DNA of 57,265 nt, taken from the NCBI GenBank assembly GCA_963796795.1, contig CAWCNA010000003.1, forward strand, positions 1-57,265, given 5' to 3'. Both the position numbers and the translations under genes were made by a program. The notes under the pieces are model-generated. The model saw nothing but the letters and a program-made list of their open reading frames with translations. It was not told the DNA's origin and ran no database searches. Positions 2,854 through 32,760 of this stretch are shown here, piece by piece (the first letter of the stretch is position 1; each line of letters starts with the position of its first letter). Origin of the DNA: Candidatus Adlerbacteria bacterium. Lineage in GTDB: Bacteria > Patescibacteriota > Minisyncoccia > Phycocordibacterales > SBAW01.

Positions 2854-3837
2854 TTAATCGAGGAAGTTTTGGGGGTCGTCCTCTTCTTTGTAGCTATCCT
2901 CATGGAACTTTTTGCCGGAGGAGTGCAGCTCGCCTTTGCCGCGCAAGAGAGCCTCGGGTTTGAGTGTAAATTTTGGGCGGTACCCTTCGACAGGGTCATA
3001 CTTCAAGAAAGGGTCGCTGCTAATCCCAAAAGCTTCTTGTAGTTTTTCGGATAAGTTCTGTTTCAATTTTTCACACGCGCCCGGAGTGATGCCAAGGTGG
3101 AGGGACAAACTCTTTATTGTCGGTTTAAACTTTTTTGTTTCTACTATCACTGCCATCTGTAAGAGAAGCCCCCATTGTTTGTCGGGAGTGCGATCCTTCG
3201 TATTCTTTCTGTCGAAATTGAGCGCTGCGTAGTCGTACGGTCCTATCAACTTTCTTTTGTAAAAGACGCGTAGAGTGTGTGCATCTGCTAATCGCAACTC
3301 CGTATCATCCCACGTTGCTCCGACGGGCATCGGCACAATTGAAATTGGGGCGACAGGAGTCTGTAGCACGTCTCTTTGGAGGAGTGCCGCTACTTTATCC
3401 ACGATAGTATCCATCGTGGATTCGTCTAGTCTCACTATCATAGGGCCAGCAGATCGGAGTCGGGGTACGTATTCAATCGGTTCCTCTATGCGGTAAGAAG
3501 TGAGTATAGGAGCCATCGTTGGCAATACGGGCAGTGAAATACTCTGTACCATTTCCTGCAAACGCACCCAGTCGTCAATGAACGGCTGCGTAGCGCGGGC
3601 GATCTCCTCTGCCGCACGCGTCATAGGTGCAAGTGCTTCGGTGATGCGTCGGTGCATCTCGGCCTGTTGCTCGATGAAAAGAGCGAAGGGTTTGTATGCC
3701 TGTGCCACCGACTCACTCATTTCTTTGTGTGTACGCCAGACATCCTCCAAGTCGCGCATCACGCCCGGTCCAAACATCTCCACAATATCGATTTCGCGTT
3801 CCTCTGCCATACCTTCAATTATATCCCAATTTGACAC
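2854..3837 (-). CDS. hypothetical protein (327 aa)
   Basis: Long ORF with a terminator downstream. No motif was recognised. It lies between the phage block and the IS element. Confidence 0.6.
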   Translation of the reverse strand: MSNWDIIEGMAEEREIDIVEMFGPGVMRDLEDVWRTHKEMSESVAQAYKPFALFIEQQAEMHRRITEALAPMTRAAEEIARATQPFIDDWVRLQEMVQSISLPVLPTMAPILTSYRIEEPIEYVPRLRSAGPMIVRLDESTMDTIVDKVAALLQRDVLQTPVAPISIVPMPVGATWDDTELRLADAHTLRVFYKRKLIGPYDYAALNFDRKNTKDRTPDKQWGLLLQMAVIVETKKFKPTIKSLSLHLGITPGACEKLKQNLSEKLQEAFGISSDPFLKYDPVEGYRPKFTLKPEALLRGKGELHSSGKKFHEDSYKEEDDPQNFLD

Positions 3838-3859
3838 TTTTTTAGTGTATTTTCTTGTG

Positions 3860-5118
3860 GGGTATCGGCAGCTTGCCTGGGATGCCAGCCAGCAATAAAC
3901 CCAATAAATTAAGTATGAAAACCAATGTACTCTCGTATGCCGATTACCAAAAGAAGCTTCAGCACCTTAACAGTCCTGAGGAGATAGCCGCCTTTGCCCA
4001 AGAGCTTATCGCTCCTGCACTGGTTCGGTTAGGCCAATCCTCAGCAACAGAAACTGACGAAGTGGAGGAAGAAGATATCGCTACTCCGGCGCGAAAAATC
4101 CCTAAACTCAAGATGAGTCGCAAGACAGTCATGACAAATCCGTGGCACGACCTTGTCGGCAACGAAAACGACGCGATGGTCATAGATCTTTACGCCAAAG
4201 GACTCACGACCCGCGACATCGCCAACTACATGAGAAATAATCATGGGGTTGAAATGTCGCAGCCATCGGTATCAGCAATTACCGACAAAGTGTTTCCCTT
4301 AGTCAAAGAGTGGCAGGCGCGTCCGCTCTCGCCATGCTATCCGATTATCTATCTCGACGGCATGCACTTCAAAGTGAGGGAGGCCGGGAAGATTGCGTCA
4401 AAGTGCGCGTACATCGCGCTCGGCGTAACACCGTTCGGGCAAAAAGAAATCCTCGGTATTTGGATTAGCGAAACCGAGGGCGCAAAGTTTTGGCTTAGCG
4501 TTTTGAGTGACATCAAAAATCGTGGTGTCGACGACGTGCTCATTGTCTGTGTCGACGGCCTCAAAGGATTTCCTGATGCCATCAAAACCATCTACCCGAA
4601 GGCTGAAGTGCAGAGCTGCATCGTGCATCAAATTCGTCACACGGTGATGTTCATTCCGCACAAAGACAAGGAGCAGTTCTGTATTGATCTTAAAAAAGTC
4701 TACACCGCTCACAACGAGGAAGCGGGGCGCGAGGCACTTCACGAAGTCATGGATCGTTGGCCGCAATATCGCTCGTACCTCAAATCGTGGGAAGACCGAT
4801 GGGCAGACTTGGCTCCGTTCTTTAGCTATCCGGAGCCAGTCCGCAAAACCATCTACACCACTAACACGATTGAAAACCTCAATCGCCAGTTTAGAAAAGT
4901 GACCAAGACAACCGTCGTGTTTCCGCACGATGATTCTCTCTTGAAATTGCTTTGGCTCGCTCAAACAGACCTCTCTAATAAGTGGACCATGCCGGTCAGG
5001 AACTGGGGAGAGGCCATGGCTCAGCTTACCATTCTGTTCCCGGATCGCGTGCAGTTCTAGCTCATTAATGACCATTAACTAACCGCTCGGCTGGCGTTTA
5101 CAGCGTGACACGGTACCC
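3860..5118 (+). mobile_element. IS256-family insertion sequence (boundaries tentative)
   Basis: Single mutator-type transposase gene. Candidate imperfect terminal inverted repeats are GGGTATCG...GCCAGCCAGC (3860-) and the reverse complement of 5118 (GGGTACCG...GCCAGCCGAGC). No clear target-site duplication was seen. Confidence 0.55.
3882..5060 (+). CDS. IS256 family (mutator-type) transposase
   Basis: Full-length similarity by eye to IS256 transposases (YLDGMHFKVRE..., CVDGLKGFPDAI, CIVHQIRH, TTNTIENLNRQFRKVTK). The start could be ATG 3882 or ATG 3915. Confidence 0.9.
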   Translation: MPASNKPNKLSMKTNVLSYADYQKKLQHLNSPEEIAAFAQELIAPALVRLGQSSATETDEVEEEDIATPARKIPKLKMSRKTVMTNPWHDLVGNENDAMVIDLYAKGLTTRDIANYMRNNHGVEMSQPSVSAITDKVFPLVKEWQARPLSPCYPIIYLDGMHFKVREAGKIASKCAYIALGVTPFGQKEILGIWISETEGAKFWLSVLSDIKNRGVDDVLIVCVDGLKGFPDAIKTIYPKAEVQSCIVHQIRHTVMFIPHKDKEQFCIDLKKVYTAHNEEAGREALHEVMDRWPQYRSYLKSWEDRWADLAPFFSYPEPVRKTIYTTNTIENLNRQFRKVTKTTVVFPHDDSLLKLLWLAQTDLSNKWTMPVRNWGEAMAQLTILFPDRVQF

Positions 5119-5127
5119 GGCAAAAAA

Positions 5128-5152
5128 GCACAGCATACTGCTGCGCTTTTTT
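5128..5152 (+). terminator. terminator-like hairpin with T6 tail (A-run upstream, possibly bidirectional)
   Basis: Stem gcacagc / gctgcgc (6 of 7 paired), loop atact, then tttttt. Confidence 0.4.
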
Positions 5153-5398
5153 GTTGTGTGGCCTCACATTCTGCCCAAAAGTTTACAGGCCACGTTACTG
5201 CTGGAAGTCCAGAAAAAATGTAAACTTTGTAAAGTAGACCCAGACCGAGCGGCCTCGCTCTGCTATACTGAAATTCCCCAAAGAAGCCTTACGGGGTCTC
5301 ACACAGGGCGGTCTGAGACCGAGCGGGGGCACCAGAGTTTGACCCAGTATTTTTTTGCTGTATACCTAACACAGAGCTAACAACCACAGGAGGATGAA

Positions 5399-5740
5399 AT
5401 GAAGGGAGCTGGTGTTTTACTGCTGCTCGCTTTCCTGATTCCTTCTGTTGCGTTGGCACAAGGGATTCCTATAAGGAGCGAGGTAACTATTTACGTTCCA
5501 CTAGAAGTGGAGATGTGGAATGATCCTCCAAAAAAGAACTCCACACACGCTTTCAAATACAAAGAGGCGTGCAAGATACAACAAGGAGGCTCTATTCGTG
5601 TGGAGAGATACCATATAGATACGGACGATTACACCGTCCGATATTATGTCCAAGGTTTACAAGAGGGTATTTCGTGCCCGGACGGGACCATCTTCTTTAT
5701 GGAGGAAAAGCAATTGAAAGAGTTGCTCAAGCAAAAGTAG
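5399..5740 (+). CDS. small secreted protein (113 aa), unknown function
   Basis: Good SD (aggagg) 7 nt upstream. N-terminal signal peptide MKGAGVLLLLAFLIPSVALAQG. Confidence 0.6.
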   Translation: MKGAGVLLLLAFLIPSVALAQGIPIRSEVTIYVPLEVEMWNDPPKKNSTHAFKYKEACKIQQGGSIRVERYHIDTDDYTVRYYVQGLQEGISCPDGTIFFMEEKQLKELLKQK

Positions 5741-5788
5741 GGTGCATGGGGAATCGTGCGCCTTTTTCTTATCTTATATAGTTAGAAG

Positions 5789-6871
5789 GTGAAGAAAAAA
5801 TATTTTATATGGGCAGGGGCGCTGCTTTTACTTACCGCAGTTGGTGTTGCAAATTCAGGTGATTTTATTTCGCACTACGGACATGTGGTGCAAAAAACTG
5901 CTGCGGGAGATTCTGGAATTTCTATATCACCGCTGGAAATTAATACGGTATCGCCAGATTATTTTTCTCTTGTTACAGAACCCGCGGATGGAACGCCACC
6001 AATATTATCGCGAATTGAAAATGCGAAGACCTCTGTTGATTTAGTAATGTACGCGCTCGACGACACGCAAGTAGAGCAAGCGCTTGGTGCGGCAGTTGCG
6101 CGCGGTGTAAAAGTTCGGGTCTTGTTGAACGGCGGATATTACGACACAAAGGAGCCGGCGAATGATGCATCATATGCAGCGTTGCAAAAAGTAGGCGTGC
6201 CGGTTGAATGGACGCCAACAAGTTTTGCACTGACGCATCAAAAGACACTTGTGCTTGATGGTAACGATGCACTTATCATGACGTTTAACTTACAAACAAA
6301 ATATTACACAACAGGCCGCGACTTTGCAGTTGATGATACCGACTCGAACGATGTCGCGGCTATTGAAAAAACATTTGATGCCGATTGGGAGGGAACCCCA
6401 CAAAATGAGGGTATCGCAGGGCAGGGCGATGATTTAGTTTGGAGCCCGGGCTCGGAAGACGAAATGTTGTATCTTATAAATTCTGCAACATCGACATTAA
6501 AAATTTATAACGAAGAGATGGATGACACGGATATTACAAACGCGCTTGTTGCAGCAGCAAAACGTGGCGTACAGGTGCAGGTAGACATGACGTATGCCAC
6601 CGACTGGAGGCCCGCGTTTACACAATTAGAAAACGGGGGAGTGGAGGTGCGTACGTTCGCATCTTCATCAAAAATCATCTACATACACGCCAAGATGATT
6701 TTGGCCGACGGCGCGCGTGTATTTCTGGGTTCTGAAAATTTCTCCGACTCATCACTCAATAAAAATAGAGAATTGGGCTTGGTACTCACGTCGCCTATGA
6801 TTATCGGGCAATTAAACGCTACATTCGATTCCGATTGGGTAAGGGCTCGGCCTTTTGTAATCCCGAAATAA
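5789..6871 (+). CDS. phospholipase D / Nuc-like (two HKD motifs) protein with N-terminal signal/anchor
   Basis: HKD motifs HQKTLVLDG and HAKMILADG...GSENFS. Hydrophobic N-terminus KKKYFIWAGALLLLTAVGVA. GTG start. Confidence 0.85.
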   Translation: MKKKYFIWAGALLLLTAVGVANSGDFISHYGHVVQKTAAGDSGISISPLEINTVSPDYFSLVTEPADGTPPILSRIENAKTSVDLVMYALDDTQVEQALGAAVARGVKVRVLLNGGYYDTKEPANDASYAALQKVGVPVEWTPTSFALTHQKTLVLDGNDALIMTFNLQTKYYTTGRDFAVDDTDSNDVAAIEKTFDADWEGTPQNEGIAGQGDDLVWSPGSEDEMLYLINSATSTLKIYNEEMDDTDITNALVAAAKRGVQVQVDMTYATDWRPAFTQLENGGVEVRTFASSSKIIYIHAKMILADGARVFLGSENFSDSSLNKNRELGLVLTSPMIIGQLNATFDSDWVRARPFVIPK

Positions 6872-27421: not shown

Positions 27422-27958
27422 TTAGAATCCTTTGTGCGTTTTTAAAAACTCTACTTCCTCTGGGGTCGAGGTACGGCCAAGTATATGGTTGCGATGCGGA
27501 AATCGACCAAACTGATCAATGATTTCCTTGTGCATCTTTTCATATCGTAATGCTTTTTCGTCACCGAGTGCTTCAAATAATGCGAACCCTTGTATGTGTA
27601 TGTCAGAAGACTCGCTGTGCATGTAGGGGAGATATGCAAACCCGCGTTCCTGCTGTGAGAGGTGAATGTCTTCACCTGCTTCGACCATCTTCTGTGCGCG
27701 CCCGAGTGCAAGCGCGTCATAGGCAAATGCGCGTGGTGTGTCGCGGAACATATTACGAGAAAACTGATCAAGCACTATAATTTCGGCCAAGCGGCCTTGC
27801 GGGGACCCCTGCCAACTTCTAGTTTCGCCAGCAGCAATCGCAGTATGTACTGGCAGAAAACGTCTACGGATATCTTCATCGAAAGCCTCGTTCTTTTTGT
27901 ACCAGTCTTTTGGAGTACATTCTGTGAACCAAAATTGTAGTATCTGGGTATAATCCAT
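27422..27958 (-). CDS. DUF924 family protein
   Basis: ILQFWF...LDQFSRNMFR...RFPHRNHILGRTSTPEE is characteristic of DUF924. Confidence 0.8.
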   Translation of the reverse strand: MDYTQILQFWFTECTPKDWYKKNEAFDEDIRRRFLPVHTAIAAGETRSWQGSPQGRLAEIIVLDQFSRNMFRDTPRAFAYDALALGRAQKMVEAGEDIHLSQQERGFAYLPYMHSESSDIHIQGFALFEALGDEKALRYEKMHKEIIDQFGRFPHRNHILGRTSTPEEVEFLKTHKGF

Positions 27959-27996
27959 ATCTGTACTATATATCGCACTCGCGATACGCTCTAGGT

Positions 27997-28656
27997 ATGC
28001 CAGTTAGGAATGAAGAAAGGCTCGCGGCACTTGAGCAGTGGATCACTGCTAATACCCCTGATCTGCCAATTTTGATACCGATAAGCGGAGGTACTGATAG
28101 TGCACTATGTTTCTGGTTATACAACAAAATTTTTGGGACGCGAGTCATCGGTGTATATATTGGCACTACATTGCGTGCCCGAGAATGGTTTGAGAGCATT
28201 GGTACAGTACGAGTTATTGAAGCACCGCCCGACATGTTCCACGATCCAGAGCTTGTGCGTTGGGCACAACTGCTCAAAATTGCGCTCGATGACAAACGTT
28301 TGCTCGTAGGCGCGCGTAATAAGACTGAGCATATACTAGGCACATTTAGTTTGGCGAGCAGGGTCGCGTCGCACCTGCCACTTACTGGACTCTGGAAAAG
28401 TGAGGTGCTCGCGTTATGTGAGCACATCGGTGTTCCTGCGGAAGTAATCGAATCGAGCCGAAAGGCGGATGTCGCGTGTGGCAGGCCTGACGAGCTGGTA
28501 CAAATTAGCGTTGAGTTGGTCGATGATTTTTTACGGACAAAAATTGGAGAACTTCCTATACACGACAAGGTTCCTACTTTAGAAGATGTTGCGTATCTAG
28601 AGCGCCTGTATCAACAACAGGGTTTTAAGCGAACCCTGCCTCTTCTGCCTCAATAG
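27997..28656 (+). CDS. PP-loop ATP pyrophosphatase, NAD+ synthetase (NadE)-like
   Basis: PP-loop PISGGTDSAL. NadE-like GARNKTEHILGTF...LPLTGLWKSEV. Confidence 0.6.
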   Translation: MPVRNEERLAALEQWITANTPDLPILIPISGGTDSALCFWLYNKIFGTRVIGVYIGTTLRAREWFESIGTVRVIEAPPDMFHDPELVRWAQLLKIALDDKRLLVGARNKTEHILGTFSLASRVASHLPLTGLWKSEVLALCEHIGVPAEVIESSRKADVACGRPDELVQISVELVDDFLRTKIGELPIHDKVPTLEDVAYLERLYQQQGFKRTLPLLPQ

Positions 28657-28684
28657 GCAAAAAATTCATTGAATCAGCTTTTGA

Positions 28685-29317
28685 TTATTTACGGAAAATT
28701 TTTTCAGGGTCGAACTGCTCGGTCGCATTAACAATATCTCGAACTATTTTCTTTCTTTTTTCTATCATATCCAGCCTGTTTCTAGAAAAAGCTGGTGTGG
28801 ACTCAAAAAAACTTCTGATGCTATACTCGGCGTTTTCCAAAGTGTCGATGTGCGCTTTAATATCATAACGGTAAAGTGAATTCAAATTTTCTCTCTCGTC
28901 TTGAGACGGGGCTTTGTTGTTCAAAGTTTTTATTTCCTTCTCAAAATCGCTAACGCCCTTGGAAAGTCCTATTAGAGCATTTTGTTGGGCCGCCTCTGCC
29001 TTAAGGATTTTTTCGATAGATTCATCAATCATCTTTTTGCGTATTTGTGGACTTGAAATTGAATCCTTATTGCCCTCACCTTGAAGTTGTCGCGTTGCAG
29101 CATCCACAATCAAACCCTCTTTCGAGGTATCAACTTTTTTTAATTCAGCACTCAAAGCCAATTGCGAAAGTTCTTTGGCTTTTGTTTCGATATTTTTTAC
29201 TTTTGACTCCAATGGCGCTTGCCCAAAAGCTTCTTTTCCTCCAGTGGCAGTGGCAATTGTGACAGCGGTGGCGCCTTTTAAGAAATTACGACGGGAAATA
29301 TTTTCAGGTCCTGACAT
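28685..29317 (-). CDS. Tat-signal secreted coiled-coil protein
   Basis: Twin-arginine motif SRRNFLKGATAVTIATA. The start was trimmed to ATG 29317 because the longer ORF overlaps the ileS start. Confidence 0.6.
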   Translation of the reverse strand: MSGPENISRRNFLKGATAVTIATATGGKEAFGQAPLESKVKNIETKAKELSQLALSAELKKVDTSKEGLIVDAATRQLQGEGNKDSISSPQIRKKMIDESIEKILKAEAAQQNALIGLSKGVSDFEKEIKTLNNKAPSQDERENLNSLYRYDIKAHIDTLENAEYSIRSFFESTPAFSRNRLDMIEKRKKIVRDIVNATEQFDPEKIFRK

Positions 29318-29405
29318 AAAAATGTTTATATGAGCTAATACCAAAAGTATATCTCTATTTTTTAGGGCCTGTAAATGAACCTCAAATCTGCTATAGTTTT
29401 TTGAT

Positions 29406-32400
29406 ATGGACGATTTGAAGCAGGGTGGCGAAGAGCTGCACCCGGAGATAGTGAATAAGCCCAAAAGTGCCTTTGCTGTTAGAGAGGAAAAGACCTTGGC
29501 ATTTTGGCAGGACAAAGAAATTTTTCAAAAATCACTGGATAAACACGCTCCGAAGGGGGATTTTGTGTTTTATGATGGTCCACCGTTTGCGAACGGTCTC
29601 CCGCACTACGGGCACTTACTGCAAAGCTCCATTAAGGATGCAATTCCGCGCTACCGCACTATGCAGGGCTACCGCGTGCCTCGCCGCTGGGGATGGGATT
29701 GTCATGGCCTGCCGGTTGAAAACCTTGTTGAAAAAGAAATGGGTTTTAAAGGCAAACGCGACATCGAAGACTTTGGCATTGCGAATTTCAACAAGGCTGC
29801 GCGCACGAGCATCATGAAGGACGTTGCCGACTGGAAACGCATCATCCCGCGCATCGGCCGCTGGGCCGACATGGAGAACGACTACAAGACCATGGACGGC
29901 ACGTACACCGAGTCGGTCTGGTGGGCGTTTAAGAATTTGCACAGCCGCGGCCTTATTTACGAAGGTTTCAAGGGTATGCATTTTTGCCCGCGCTGCGGCA
30001 CGACGCTTTCAAATAATGAAGTGGCGCAAGGTTACATGGATATTGATGATATCGCCGTCACCGTAAAATTTCCGCTTGTCGATGAGCCAGAAACTTCTAT
30101 TCTTATTTGGACCACCACACCGTGGACACTGCCGGGGAACACCGCTGCCGCGGTAAATGCAGATGCAACGTATGTTAAAGTCCGTACCAATGAGGGGTTT
30201 GTAATCGTTCTAAAAGAATTAGCAACAAAAGTATTGGGAGAAGATATAAAAGTTTTTAGCGAGATGCTCGGTAAAGATTTGGTTGGTAAGCGATACGAGC
30301 CACCCTTTTCGTATTTTAAAGATACGCTCCATAAACATAAAACTCATGCATATAAAATCTATGCAGCGCCGTACGTAACACTTGAGGATGGTACGGGCAT
30401 CGTGCATTTGGCACCTGGGTACGGTGCAGAAGATTTGATCTTCGCGCAGAAAGAAAAAATTCCGCTTATCCAGCACGTCACTGACGAGGGTAAATTTATT
30501 TCAACCGTCGTAGATTTTGCCGGCTTGCCTGTGAAGCCAAAAGGCCGCCATATGGAGACGGATGCAAAAATTGTTGAGCATCTGCAGAATCGGGGGTTGC
30601 TGTTCCATCAGGAAAAAATAAATCACTCCTATCCTCATTGCTGGCGCTGCGACACGCCACTTTTAAACTGGGCGTCGAACTCATGGTTTGTAAGCGTTGC
30701 AAAAGTAAAAAAAGATTTGCTTGCACAAAATAAAAAAGTTTCCTGGGTGCCAAAGAGCACGGGGGAGGGTCGATTCCAGAAAGGCCTTGAAACTGCACCG
30801 GATTGGGCGATTTCGCGCAGCCGTTATTGGGGCGCACCATTGCCCGTGTGGCGCCACAGCAAAACCAAAGAAATAAAAGTCGTGGGCTCAGTCGACGAAC
30901 TCCTTACAATGGTGCGCCGCTCGGGCAACACATATTTTGTTATGCGTCATGGTGAATCGAATTCAAATGTCATCGACACAGAAGATGTTGCTGGCGACCC
31001 TGACAATCATCTAACTGAAAAAGGTAAAAAGGAGGTCATGGTTGCAGCGCGAGCGCTTTCATCAAAAAAAATAGATTTGATTGTTACTTCGCCGTTTTTG
31101 CGCACTAAAGAAACGGCACAGCTGCTGGCGCAAGAGTTTGGCCTGTCGGATTCTGCAATTATGACAGACACCCGTTTGGGTGAGGTCGAGCATGTAACGC
31201 CCGACCTATGCCGTGCCGTGGGAGAATTTATTTTTGAAATAGAACGTCGTTACAGTGGTAAAAATGTACTCGTTGTTTCTCATGGAGGAACTATGTGGGC
31301 ATTGCAACAAGTAGCGGCTCGCCAGTCGAGGCTTGGATTTAATCGCACCGCCATGCTTGGTAATGCGGAGTGGGCAGAATTACCTTTTGTTCCGTATCCG
31401 CACAACGACGACTACGAACTCGATCTGCATCGCCCATATATAGATGATATTCCACTAGGAGATTCGCTCGCGGGGGAGTGGAAGCGTGTGCCGGATGTGT
31501 TTGACTGCTGGTTTGAGTCGGGCTCGATGCCGTACGCGTCGAACCATTATCCGTTCAAGAAAAATAATTTCAATCCAAAAAAGGTATTTGGATTTATGCC
31601 TAAAGGCTACCCAGCCGACTTTATTGCCGAGGCCGTCGACCAAACTCGCGGTTGGTTTTATTCGCTGATTGTTTTGGGAACGGCGCTCTTTGGAAAGTCG
31701 CCATATAAGAATGTCATTACGACCGGGTTTATTAATGCAAGCGATGGTAAAAAAATGAGCAAGCGGCTCAAAAACTATCCCGACCCCTTGGAGTTAATAG
31801 ACAAATACGGCGTCGATTCCTTGAGGTATTACATGCTGTCGTCGCAATTGGTGCGTGGCGAAGACTTGAGCTTTAAGGAACAAGGTGTTGAAGAGGTTTC
31901 AAAAAAACTTTTGATGCGCCTCGACAACGTTGTGTCGTTTTATGAACTGTATGCAAACAGCACGCCACGTTCAAACGAAAGCACGGCTGCGCTTGACCGA
32001 TGGATCGTTTCGCGTCTTGCAGAGCTAGTACAGCAAACGACCGAAGGCTTTGAGAAATACGAACTTGATGTTGCAACCCGGCCACTTGCTGCGTTTATTG
32101 ACGACCTTTCAACGTGGTATCTGCGCCGCTCGCGTGATAGGTTTAAAAGTGATACTCAAGATAAAAAAGACGCCCTTGCCACGTTGCGTTTTACGCTGTA
32201 CATAGTTTCGCACGTCATGGCTCCAGTTATGCCATTTTTCGCAGACGAACTATTTGGCCGTATAAAAGAAGAAGGCGATGCCGAAAGCGTGCATCTTTCG
32301 AGCTGGCCTGAAGCTGGAAGTGTTGATATAGATCTAATTTCCGGGATGTCTTTTGTTCGCAGCCTTTCCACTATTGCTCTTAAACAACGAGAAGAAGCTA

Positions 32401-32760
32401 ACCTCAAAGTCCGTCAACCACTTCGAGAAATTTACTGTTATCTCTGCCGTCGGTTTGCCTTCAGATTTGCATGAGATTCTTTCAGAGGAAATCAATGTTA
32501 AAGAAATTATATTCACATTGGGTGAACAGGGGAAAGCCTCGTACGTACTCGATACAGAATTAACTTCCGAACTTAAAGAAGAGGGAATTGTGCGTGATAT
32601 TGTGCGCAAAATCCAAGGCTGGCGTAAAGAACAGAATCTCCAGATTACTGACAGAGCTTCATACGTGCTGACCGCAACAGAAGAAGAAAAGGCAGCGGTA
32701 GAAAAAAATCGCACAAAAATTATGGAACTGACAGGGTTGAATGCTTTACACATCGAATAA
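29406..32760 (+). pseudogene. ileS: isoleucine--tRNA ligase carrying an inserted histidine-phosphatase domain; one frame disruption near the 3' end as sequenced
   Basis: HIGH (PHYGH), KMSKR, CP1 editing region. The main ORF ends at 32474 (..VRQPLREIYCY..). The +1 frame continues (E)KFTVISAVGLPSDLHEILSEEINVKEI...EGIVRDIVRKIQGWRK, the IleRS C-terminus. The shift is near 32424-32433 (gagaaattt). Confidence 0.9.

Follow-up and report, generated by a model that had tools for sequence, protein, structure and literature searches.

The window analysed here is a stretch of 57,265 nucleotides of Candidatus Adlerbacteria DNA (contig CAWCNA010000003.1, the whole length being meant), and its subject is a gene for isoleucyl-tRNA synthetase (IleRS) that carries a second enzyme domain within its coding sequence. 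The bifunctional architecture is real: a type-2 IleRS has, at the tip of its CP3 subdomain, a whole histidine-phosphatase domain of branch 1 nested within it. The principal parts of the gene are the following:

29406-32474, plus strand: IleRS open reading frame (ORF), 1022 amino acids in a single continuous frame, with the final ~14 residues out of frame past a frameshift
29601-29615, plus strand: HIGH signature P66-H-Y-G-H70, with P66, H67 and G69 invariant and Y68 and H70 at 90% or more in 120 homologues
30828-30908, plus strand: N-terminal half of CP3 (WGAPLPVW ... VGSVDELLT), directly 5' of the insert and aligning to yeast residues up to 490
30909-31421, plus strand: nested His_Phos_1 domain in its short, cap-less form (residues 502-672, 171 amino acids)
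31422-32429, plus strand: C-terminal half of CP3 (DLHRPYID...), second Rossmann half and anticodon-binding domain, as delimited by Pfam and PDB alignment
31752-31766, plus strand: KMSKS signature K783-M-S-K-R787, with K783, M784, S785 and K786 invariant

The host is a normal type-2 (eukaryote-like) IleRS with intact HIGH and KMSKS signatures and editing domain. Pfam recognizes tRNA-synt_1 in two parts (best stretch 30-501), Anticodon_1 (864-1008) and, from residue 511, His_Phos_1, while the NCBIfam isoleucine--tRNA ligase model TIGR00392 (ileS) scores 891.9 bits, well above its cut-off of 621.4. The class I signatures PHYGH (66-70) and KMSKR (783-787) and the editing-domain motif WTTTPWTLP (235-243) are present, and all are invariant or nearly so in an alignment of the 120 best full-length homologues (60-85% identical, 969-1240 amino acids), on which all conservation counts below are based. 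The AlphaFold2 model superposes on type-2 structures, with TMt values of 0.89 to 1ILE and 0.72 to 8C8V. Assignment to the mupirocin-resistance enzymes MupA/MupB was rejected (NF000257 and NF000258, 630.9 and 680.9 bits versus a cut-off of 1900), as was assignment to the family ileS_w_GNAT (NF040702, 341.6 bits versus 1999), no GNAT match being found with Pfam.

The insert exceeds the PF00300 gathering cut-off of 21.7 bits both within the whole protein (76.1 bits, E=3.9e-21) and alone (83.5 bits, E=2.1e-23). In a phmmer comparison with PDB sequences, residues 22-501 and 673-1009 align to residues 9-490 and 499-852 of yeast IleRS, and the insert of 171 residues stands in place of a yeast loop of about eight. 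CP3 of the yeast enzyme comprises residues 459-526 (PMC7955072); the insertion point is flanked by yeast residues 490 and 499, and the phosphatase is therefore located at the CP3 tip. The yeast CP2-CP3 linker (residues 453-465) lines the pocket of the tRNA CCA end, the site of reveromycin A binding (PMC7955072). On the other side of the insert, the C-terminal half of CP3 leads directly into the VFDCWFESG motif. In the T. thermophilus structure, the Trp of this motif belongs to the isoleucine pocket. GC content stays level, at 0.45-0.49, through the two junctions, and no further His_Phos gene was found in the 57,265-nt window.

Foldseek comparison of the insert model with the PDB gave 285 matches at E<=0.001, and the top 50 are all His_Phos structures (TM 0.62-0.74), sharing the alpha/beta fold of the superfamily. 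The best matches, at a TM of about 0.7, are small-molecule phosphatases, namely GpgP (Rv2419c), RosC, PspA, PhoE and a CobC-like protein. The model indicates that the insert folds autonomously (pTM 0.90). An earlier, sequence-only reading of this DNA had proposed a branch-1 histidine phosphatase inserted in frame, not a neighbouring gene, and physically coupled to a synthetase; the Pfam scan, PDB alignment and Foldseek search agree on the domain, the single continuous ORF and the like arrangement in all 120 homologues confirm the insertion, and the intact host domains and motifs show an IleRS of functional type. The structure prediction it called for has the insert folding alone (pLDDT 94.2). 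Its figure of about 170 extra residues is accurate, whereas its estimate of ~205 residues between the conserved flanking segments was somewhat high (190 from W482 to D673), and the insert start given as 30910 was one base out of frame, the codon-aligned start being 30909.

Residues 486-488 (30861-30869), in the CP3 half that precedes the insert, form a basic K-T-K motif conserved in 114-119 of the 120 homologues; the aligned yeast segment is acidic (DDFEE). The motif may help to form a contact surface towards the insert or tRNA.

The catalytic residues and the two junctions of the nested domain are located as follows:

30921-30935, plus strand: entry junction S506-G-N-T-Y510 (S506 117/120, G507 118/120, N508 and Y510 120/120), pLDDT ~91 in the full-length model
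30945-30953, plus strand: RHG motif with H515, the predicted phospho-acceptor nucleophile (R514 and H515 120/120)
31101-31103, plus strand: R566, second phosphate-binding arginine, in SPFLRTKET (31089-31115), 120/120
31182-31184, plus strand: E593, predicted general acid/base (116 Glu and 4 Asp of 120); the cap hairpin of the long form would follow here
31281-31283, plus strand: H626, second catalytic histidine (SHGG), 119/120
31386-31406, plus strand: exit junction F661-V-P-Y-P-H-N667 (F661 and P665 120/120, H666 119/120, N667 117/120)

The codons CGT CAT GGT GAA at 30945-30956 specify R514, H515, G516 and E517, and this RHGE motif, the SP-x-x-R-x-x-E-T motif (here SPFLRTKET) and the CAT codon of the second histidine at 31281-31283 all lie where the sequence-only reading had put them. 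The superfamily residues R514, H515, G516, R566, E593 and H626 are all present in the window protein and are kept in 116-120 of the 120 homologues; conservation is equally high at N521 (118/120), D588 (119/120), S562 and R590 (120/120 each). Beyond these homologues, among 50%-identity representatives, R514 and H515 are retained in every one of ~134 domain copies, and the whole R-H...R...E/D...H set is found in essentially all of these divergent copies, including every copy in proteins with two to four of them and those at a second site. The alternative of a degenerate module, which had been left open earlier, is disfavoured by the intact catalytic residues. Both junctions are confidently modelled in the full-length AlphaFold2 model.

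The insert diverges faster than the synthetase core, with a mean identity to the window sequence of 50% versus 71-77% in the 120 homologues. Compared with the gene of homologue P0122, dN is 0.14 for the insert, 0.05-0.07 for the catalytic core and 0.26 for the anticodon domain, and dN/dS of the insert is ~0.08, with dS saturated. As judged from these comparisons, the nested domain is under purifying selection.

The combination of PF00133 and PF00300 occurs in all 120 homologues, which come from independent assemblies and, where named, are labelled Candidatus Adlerbacteria, Paceibacterota, Nomurabacteria, Minisyncoccia or Patescibacteria. In GTDB, with one genome per species, at least 600 loci match, and the 80 best of these all span the insert; they belong to Adler-, Nomura-, Zambryski-, Kaiser-, Vogel- and Wolfebacteria and to the early OD1 genome RAAC4_OD1_1. 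When 1.84 billion 50%-identity representatives were searched exhaustively with HMMER, class Ia synthetase sequence, almost always IleRS, flanked the insert-like domain in about 94 of the 150 top-ranking matches. The nested architecture is inherited across Parcubacteria/Paceibacteria, occurs in hundreds of related species and is lineage-wide, not rare; the comparison with relatives suggested by the sequence-only reading thus finds the insertion widespread. Taxonomic labels of metagenome-assembled genomes (MAGs) are used as deposited, and many of the labels "uncultured Candidatus Saccharibacteria" are probably generic.

Some occurrences lie outside this pattern. Parcubacteria-type IleRS genes are found in MAGs assigned to unrelated phyla, on contig L045 (Nitrosotenuis, 3.3 kb), contig L074 (Azotimanducaceae, 19.2 kb) and a 1.3-kb contig (P0024, Methylomirabilis), and probably represent bin contamination. 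Free-standing proteins of 185-205 amino acids, 35-48% identical to the insert, also exist (P0256, P0275, P0291, P0308, P0315, P0330, P0343, P0352 and others), several of which form small clades. A neighbour-joining tree of 136 domain copies from the 50%-identity representatives is star-like and uninformative on the origin of the insert. The 186-residue "free-standing" phosphatase P0007 was considered as a product of a naturally split IleRS and rejected: at 3496-6869 of locus L082, a 26-kb contig, the IleRS is broken with gaps into four ORFs of 225, 186, 99 and 308 amino acids, which most likely reflects an error-prone assembly.

Full-text searches of the literature found no published description of an IleRS with a nested histidine phosphatase. 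Database annotation of the architecture is automatic only, with the names "class I tRNA ligase family protein," "histidine phosphatase family protein, partial" and "broad specificity phosphatase PhoE"; among deposited fragments, one bears the last of these names and others are called "histidine phosphatase family protein." The sequence-only reading did not recognize the architecture as described, and this holds for the literature searched; the architecture is, however, lineage-wide and visible in these automatic annotations. The NCBIfam model ileS_w_GNAT shows that another decorated IleRS is already familiar to curators, and the behaviour of the insert as a cassette is an additional feature.

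The insert occurs in two forms. The long form (201-209 amino acids, 75 of the 120 homologues) has a cap hairpin, G..DGK...EW....F....GGE, after the catalytic Glu, whereas the short form (170-175 amino acids, 45 of 120 including the window) lacks these ~30 residues. The subclade of the window has in addition lost R604 and P629, which are conserved elsewhere. The window copy is a derived cap-less form, the long form being ancestral. Short and long forms are interleaved throughout the host tree, with 18 independent close short/long pairs, while in the insert tree the short inserts fall into four near-exclusive clades of 35, 4, 4 and 2. These trees were built by neighbour-joining, without support values.

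Host and insert do not share one history. Their pairwise distances show a Spearman correlation of only 0.245, and 35 pairs have a host identity of at least 84% and an insert identity of at most 62%, some of them long/long. Over the host, the window protein shares 88% identity with P0124 (90-100% in most 30-residue windows), but in the insert only about 50% (55% over insert-core columns), the drop starting near residue 500 and ending near residue 665. At the nucleotide level the discordant segment is as follows:

30953-31397, plus strand: swapped cassette, in which no nucleotide similarity is detected to the P0124 gene (locus L083), ~80% identical elsewhere

In blastn, the two genes match in blocks 29373-30952 (81%) and 31398-32309 (78%), with none between, and third-codon-position identity is ~0.5-0.6 outside and 0.23-0.43 within the insert. 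Since synonymous and nucleotide similarity collapse together in the insert, replacement by an old divergent allele is indicated, not fast amino-acid change alone. The opposite case is provided by P0122 and P0125, whose hosts are 74% and inserts 82-84% identical as proteins (nucleotide identity 0.69 for the host and 0.76 for the insert); with the collapse at synonymous sites, this more similar insert disfavours rapid amino-acid divergence alone as the cause of the discordance. Crossover points coincide with the invariant junction motifs. Recombination was assessed mainly from sliding-window and DNA comparisons of four genes, and in these the insert is a modular cassette, divergent alleles of which appear to be exchanged between IleRS backbones by crossover in the conserved junctions. 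Host residues near HIGH and KMSKS seemed to co-vary with insert type (63, 779 and 782), which was attributed to phylogenetic confounding: Cramér's V is 0.49-0.56 across the 120 homologues, but these positions differ in only 1-4 of the 18 close short/long contrasts, like same-class controls.

Relatives among the 50%-identity representatives matched by the insert search show further geometries. Proteins P0356, P0284 and P0370 carry a tandem phosphatase pair at the CP3 site of IleRS, and P0268, P0317 and P0299 have a second copy between the catalytic and anticodon-binding domains, at a position equivalent to window residues ~851-862. Only the second-site copy is present in P0366, which also has an alpha/beta-hydrolase (Ser_hydrolase) nested after the HYPF motif (domains at residues 562-734 and 872-1017). 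In P0360 the editing domain is interrupted by a RAYT/IS200-like Y1 transposase domain, and phosphatase and GNAT domains are present as well (residues 340-461, 680-854 and 935-1063). The valyl-tRNA synthetase (ValRS) P0242 has four His_Phos copies (residues 425-617, 693-884, 883-1058 and 1067-1157), one before CP2 and three after WGHRIPVW, that is, at the same CP3 site. A few further ValRS fragments carry PF00300 (P0384-P0388), ValRS cases being much rarer than those in IleRS. The IleRS of candidate phyla radiation (CPR) bacteria seems to be a hotspot of in-frame domain insertion, and the CP3 tip represents a natural permissive site for such insertion in class Ia synthetases.

Assignment of the insert to a characterized subfamily was not obtained. 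The models of cofactor-dependent phosphoglycerate mutase (dPGM) all score far below their cut-offs (NF038349 48.7 versus 225 bits, TIGR01258 30.7 versus 81.7, PRK models 16-41 versus 261-409), which disfavours the mutase activity that the sequence-only reading had offered as an alternative. Enzymes of the dPGM type are ~230-250 amino acids long, and the nested domain measures 165-205. SixA was likewise rejected (TIGR00249, 47.2 versus 74.5 bits; the alignment spans residues 10-125 with E=2e-12), as was the alpha-ribazole phosphatase CobC (TIGR03162, 48.9 versus 162.9 bits, the long-form relative P0360 reaching 94 bits on this model). The top NCBIfam match of the insert alone is NF005567, an RNase H/acid phosphatase model (E=4e-13, 49 bits versus a cut-off of 326).

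Several known systems resemble parts of this arrangement. The type-2 IleRS of T. thermophilus (1ILE), Priestia megaterium (IleRS2, 8C8V) and yeast (7D5C) have the same HIGH, KMSKS, CP1 editing, CP2, CP3, anticodon-binding and DUF5915 elements, but an ~8-residue loop at the CP3 tip where the window enzyme has an enzyme domain of 171 residues. The small branch-1 phosphatases CobC, PhoE/YhfR, GpmB, PspA and GpgP (Rv2419c) share fold and catalytic residues with the insert and are its best sequence and structure matches; unlike them, the insert reaches no equivalog cut-off, is nested in another enzyme and, in the window form, lacks the cap hairpin. In Rv2228c-type RNase H/acid phosphatases and PFKFB, a His_Phos domain is likewise joined covalently to a nucleic-acid- or nucleotide-handling enzyme, but these are end-to-end fusions and not nested insertions. 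The family ileS_w_GNAT (NF040702), for which no paper was found, is a precedent for an IleRS with an extra enzymatic domain, although this is a GNAT and not a His_Phos domain. Another hydrolytic domain that interrupts the Rossmann fold in this class of enzymes is the CP1 editing domain of IleRS, ValRS and leucyl-tRNA synthetase. CP1 is, however, universal and acts on aminoacyl esters, whereas the His_Phos insert is lineage-specific, lies in CP3 and probably acts on phosphate esters.

We favour, with modest confidence, the reading that the nested domain is a selected, catalytically active phosphomonoesterase carried by IleRS. From its sequence we infer a working phosphomonoesterase in which attack of H515 on the phosphate would give a phospho-histidine intermediate; the phosphate would be held by R514, R566, N521 and H626, and E593 would serve as acid/base. 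IleRS would guarantee the expression of the phosphatase and keep it near the tRNA-charging machinery. Such a carrier role is most likely. Tandem and other-site copies in the IleRS and ValRS of relatives, all with intact active sites, make a precisely channelled partner reaction less probable. By analogy, the substrate class is most likely a nucleotide or other small phosphate ester, because the closest characterized relatives (CobC, PhoE, GpmB, PspA and GpgP) act on small phosphomonoesters, including ribose-5'-phosphate compounds.

Some considerations weigh against this reading. Because the junctions are invariant, the domain may be held in one orientation on the host, which would fit a role in cis better than mere carriage. 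The position of the insert between the WFESG motif, presumably at the isoleucine pocket, and the linker of the CCA pocket (PMC7955072) makes allosteric or in-cis coupling structurally plausible. The cap-less form has spread repeatedly, which argues that the domain can do without the small-molecule specificity a cap provides, and a housekeeping metabolic enzyme would not usually differ as strongly as the insert does between hosts that are nearly identical.

It is possible, though on balance rather unlikely, that the phosphatase acts in cis on a nucleic acid or nucleotide bound to IleRS. Where a tRNA CCA end has been damaged or modified by a toxin, it could take off the 3'-phosphate or 3'-pyrophosphate and so enable charging, or it could hydrolyse the AMP product. 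Pyrophosphorylation of the tRNA CCA end by toxSAS toxins is known. A role of this kind is consistent with the anchoring of the insert between active-site elements, the CP2-CP3 linker lining the CCA pocket (PMC7955072), and with the invariant and confidently modelled junctions. It is also consistent with the spread of the open cap-less form, with the specific association with class Ia enzymes (IleRS and some ValRS) and with the presence of CobC-type ribose-5'-phosphate phosphatases and the RNase H/acid phosphatase fusion among the closest NCBIfam models. However, tandem arrays and copies at two to three sites cannot share one geometry to the active site, no host residue co-varies with insert type in the 18 independent close short/long contrasts, and a contact between CP3 and tRNA was not found described in two IleRS structure papers (PMC7955072 among them).

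A further proposal, by which the phosphatase would serve tRNA charging in cis as a module of repair or defence, for example by stripping a toxin-placed phosphate or pyrophosphate from the CCA end or from the synthetase, is speculative and of low probability. If it were true, the hypervariability, the exchange of cassettes between lineages and the GNAT and alpha/beta-hydrolase domains nested likewise in other CPR IleRS would represent an arms race on an essential translation enzyme. A defence or phage link was rejected: no PADLOC model matched, and just one PHROG did, with no function assigned.

We consider it quite unlikely that the domain is a protective or regulatory protein phosphatase, which would strip inhibitory phosphates from IleRS or another protein, its hypervariability again reflecting an arms race. 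The superfamily includes the protein phosphatases SixA, PGAM5 and Sts-1, and an analogy is provided by the kinase toxins HipA/HipT, which phosphorylate glutamyl- and tryptophanyl-tRNA synthetases. The hypervariable surface around an invariant catalytic core and the exchange of cassettes agree with this proposal, as does the SixA-like size of the cap-less form, to which TIGR00249 aligns. On the other hand, the sixA cut-off is not reached, the ancestral long form has a cap typical of small-molecule enzymes, the PADLOC result gives no support, and no kinase toxin was seen near IleRS.

The domain is very unlikely to be a non-catalytic module, that is, a structural, tRNA-binding or ligand-sensing appendage, or a passenger persisting since its precise excision from an essential gene is improbable. 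Its faster evolution relative to the host core, the loss of the cap in 45 of the 120 homologues and the loss of R604 and P629 in the window subclade would be in line with such a module. A passive passenger would, however, have lost the catalytic residues, which are invariant or nearly so in the 120 homologues and ~134 copies, and the low dN/dS also contradicts it. Finally, an assembly or annotation artefact, in which a neighbouring phosphatase gene was misassembled into IleRS, has next to no probability: only a probable indel error elsewhere in the same gene speaks for it, while the frame is continuous, the CP3 halves flank the insert exactly, and an assembly chimera is ruled out by the flat GC and by the same architecture in 120/120 homologues and the best 80 GTDB loci.

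The indel in question affects the 3' end of the gene, where two further features were recognized:

32427-32433, plus strand: frameshift site GAAATTT with one extra base; deleting one base restores ...RQPLRE-FTVISAVGLP..., colinear with homologues
32431-32760, plus strand: C-terminal DUF5915 domain of IleRS in the shifted frame (Pfam E=2.5e-17); homologues are ~1116 amino acids long

The complete C-terminal tRNA-binding domain is therefore not encoded in one frame with the rest of the enzyme, the frameshift splitting off DUF5915. With the frame restored, IleRS would have ~1117 amino acids, matching homologue P0122 (1116 amino acids). The one-base frameshift is probably a sequencing or assembly indel, because it falls in an A3T3 run and the homologues are intact; if real, it would cost IleRS its C-terminal tRNA-binding domain.

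The gene order of the window, with arginyl-tRNA synthetase (ArgRS), IleRS, RecO, a DUF11/CLIPPER protein and a class II synthetase, is the same in the closest genome. The interval between ArgRS and IleRS is variable: it holds DUF924, an NAD-synthase-like gene and a TAT-signal protein in the window (27422-29400), nothing in the closest genome (L081, 2351-4001), an IS605 OrfB-like gene and Cas1 in L082 (937-3022), and a GcrA-like gene in L084 (289-876), where a serine recombinase also lies past RecO.

Aminoacyl-tRNA synthetases belong to the most highly conserved enzymes, and their cores have seldom acquired new catalytic domains. Automatic pipelines can call the nested domain "phosphoglycerate mutase/PhoE" or split IleRS, which may distort the inference of glycolysis in CPR bacteria. 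Parcubacteria, with the tiny genomes of symbionts, retain an apparently active phosphatase in IleRS; they have also duplicated it, placed it at other sites and in ValRS, and swapped its alleles between lineages. This points to an unrecognized activity linked to tRNA charging in CPR bacteria.

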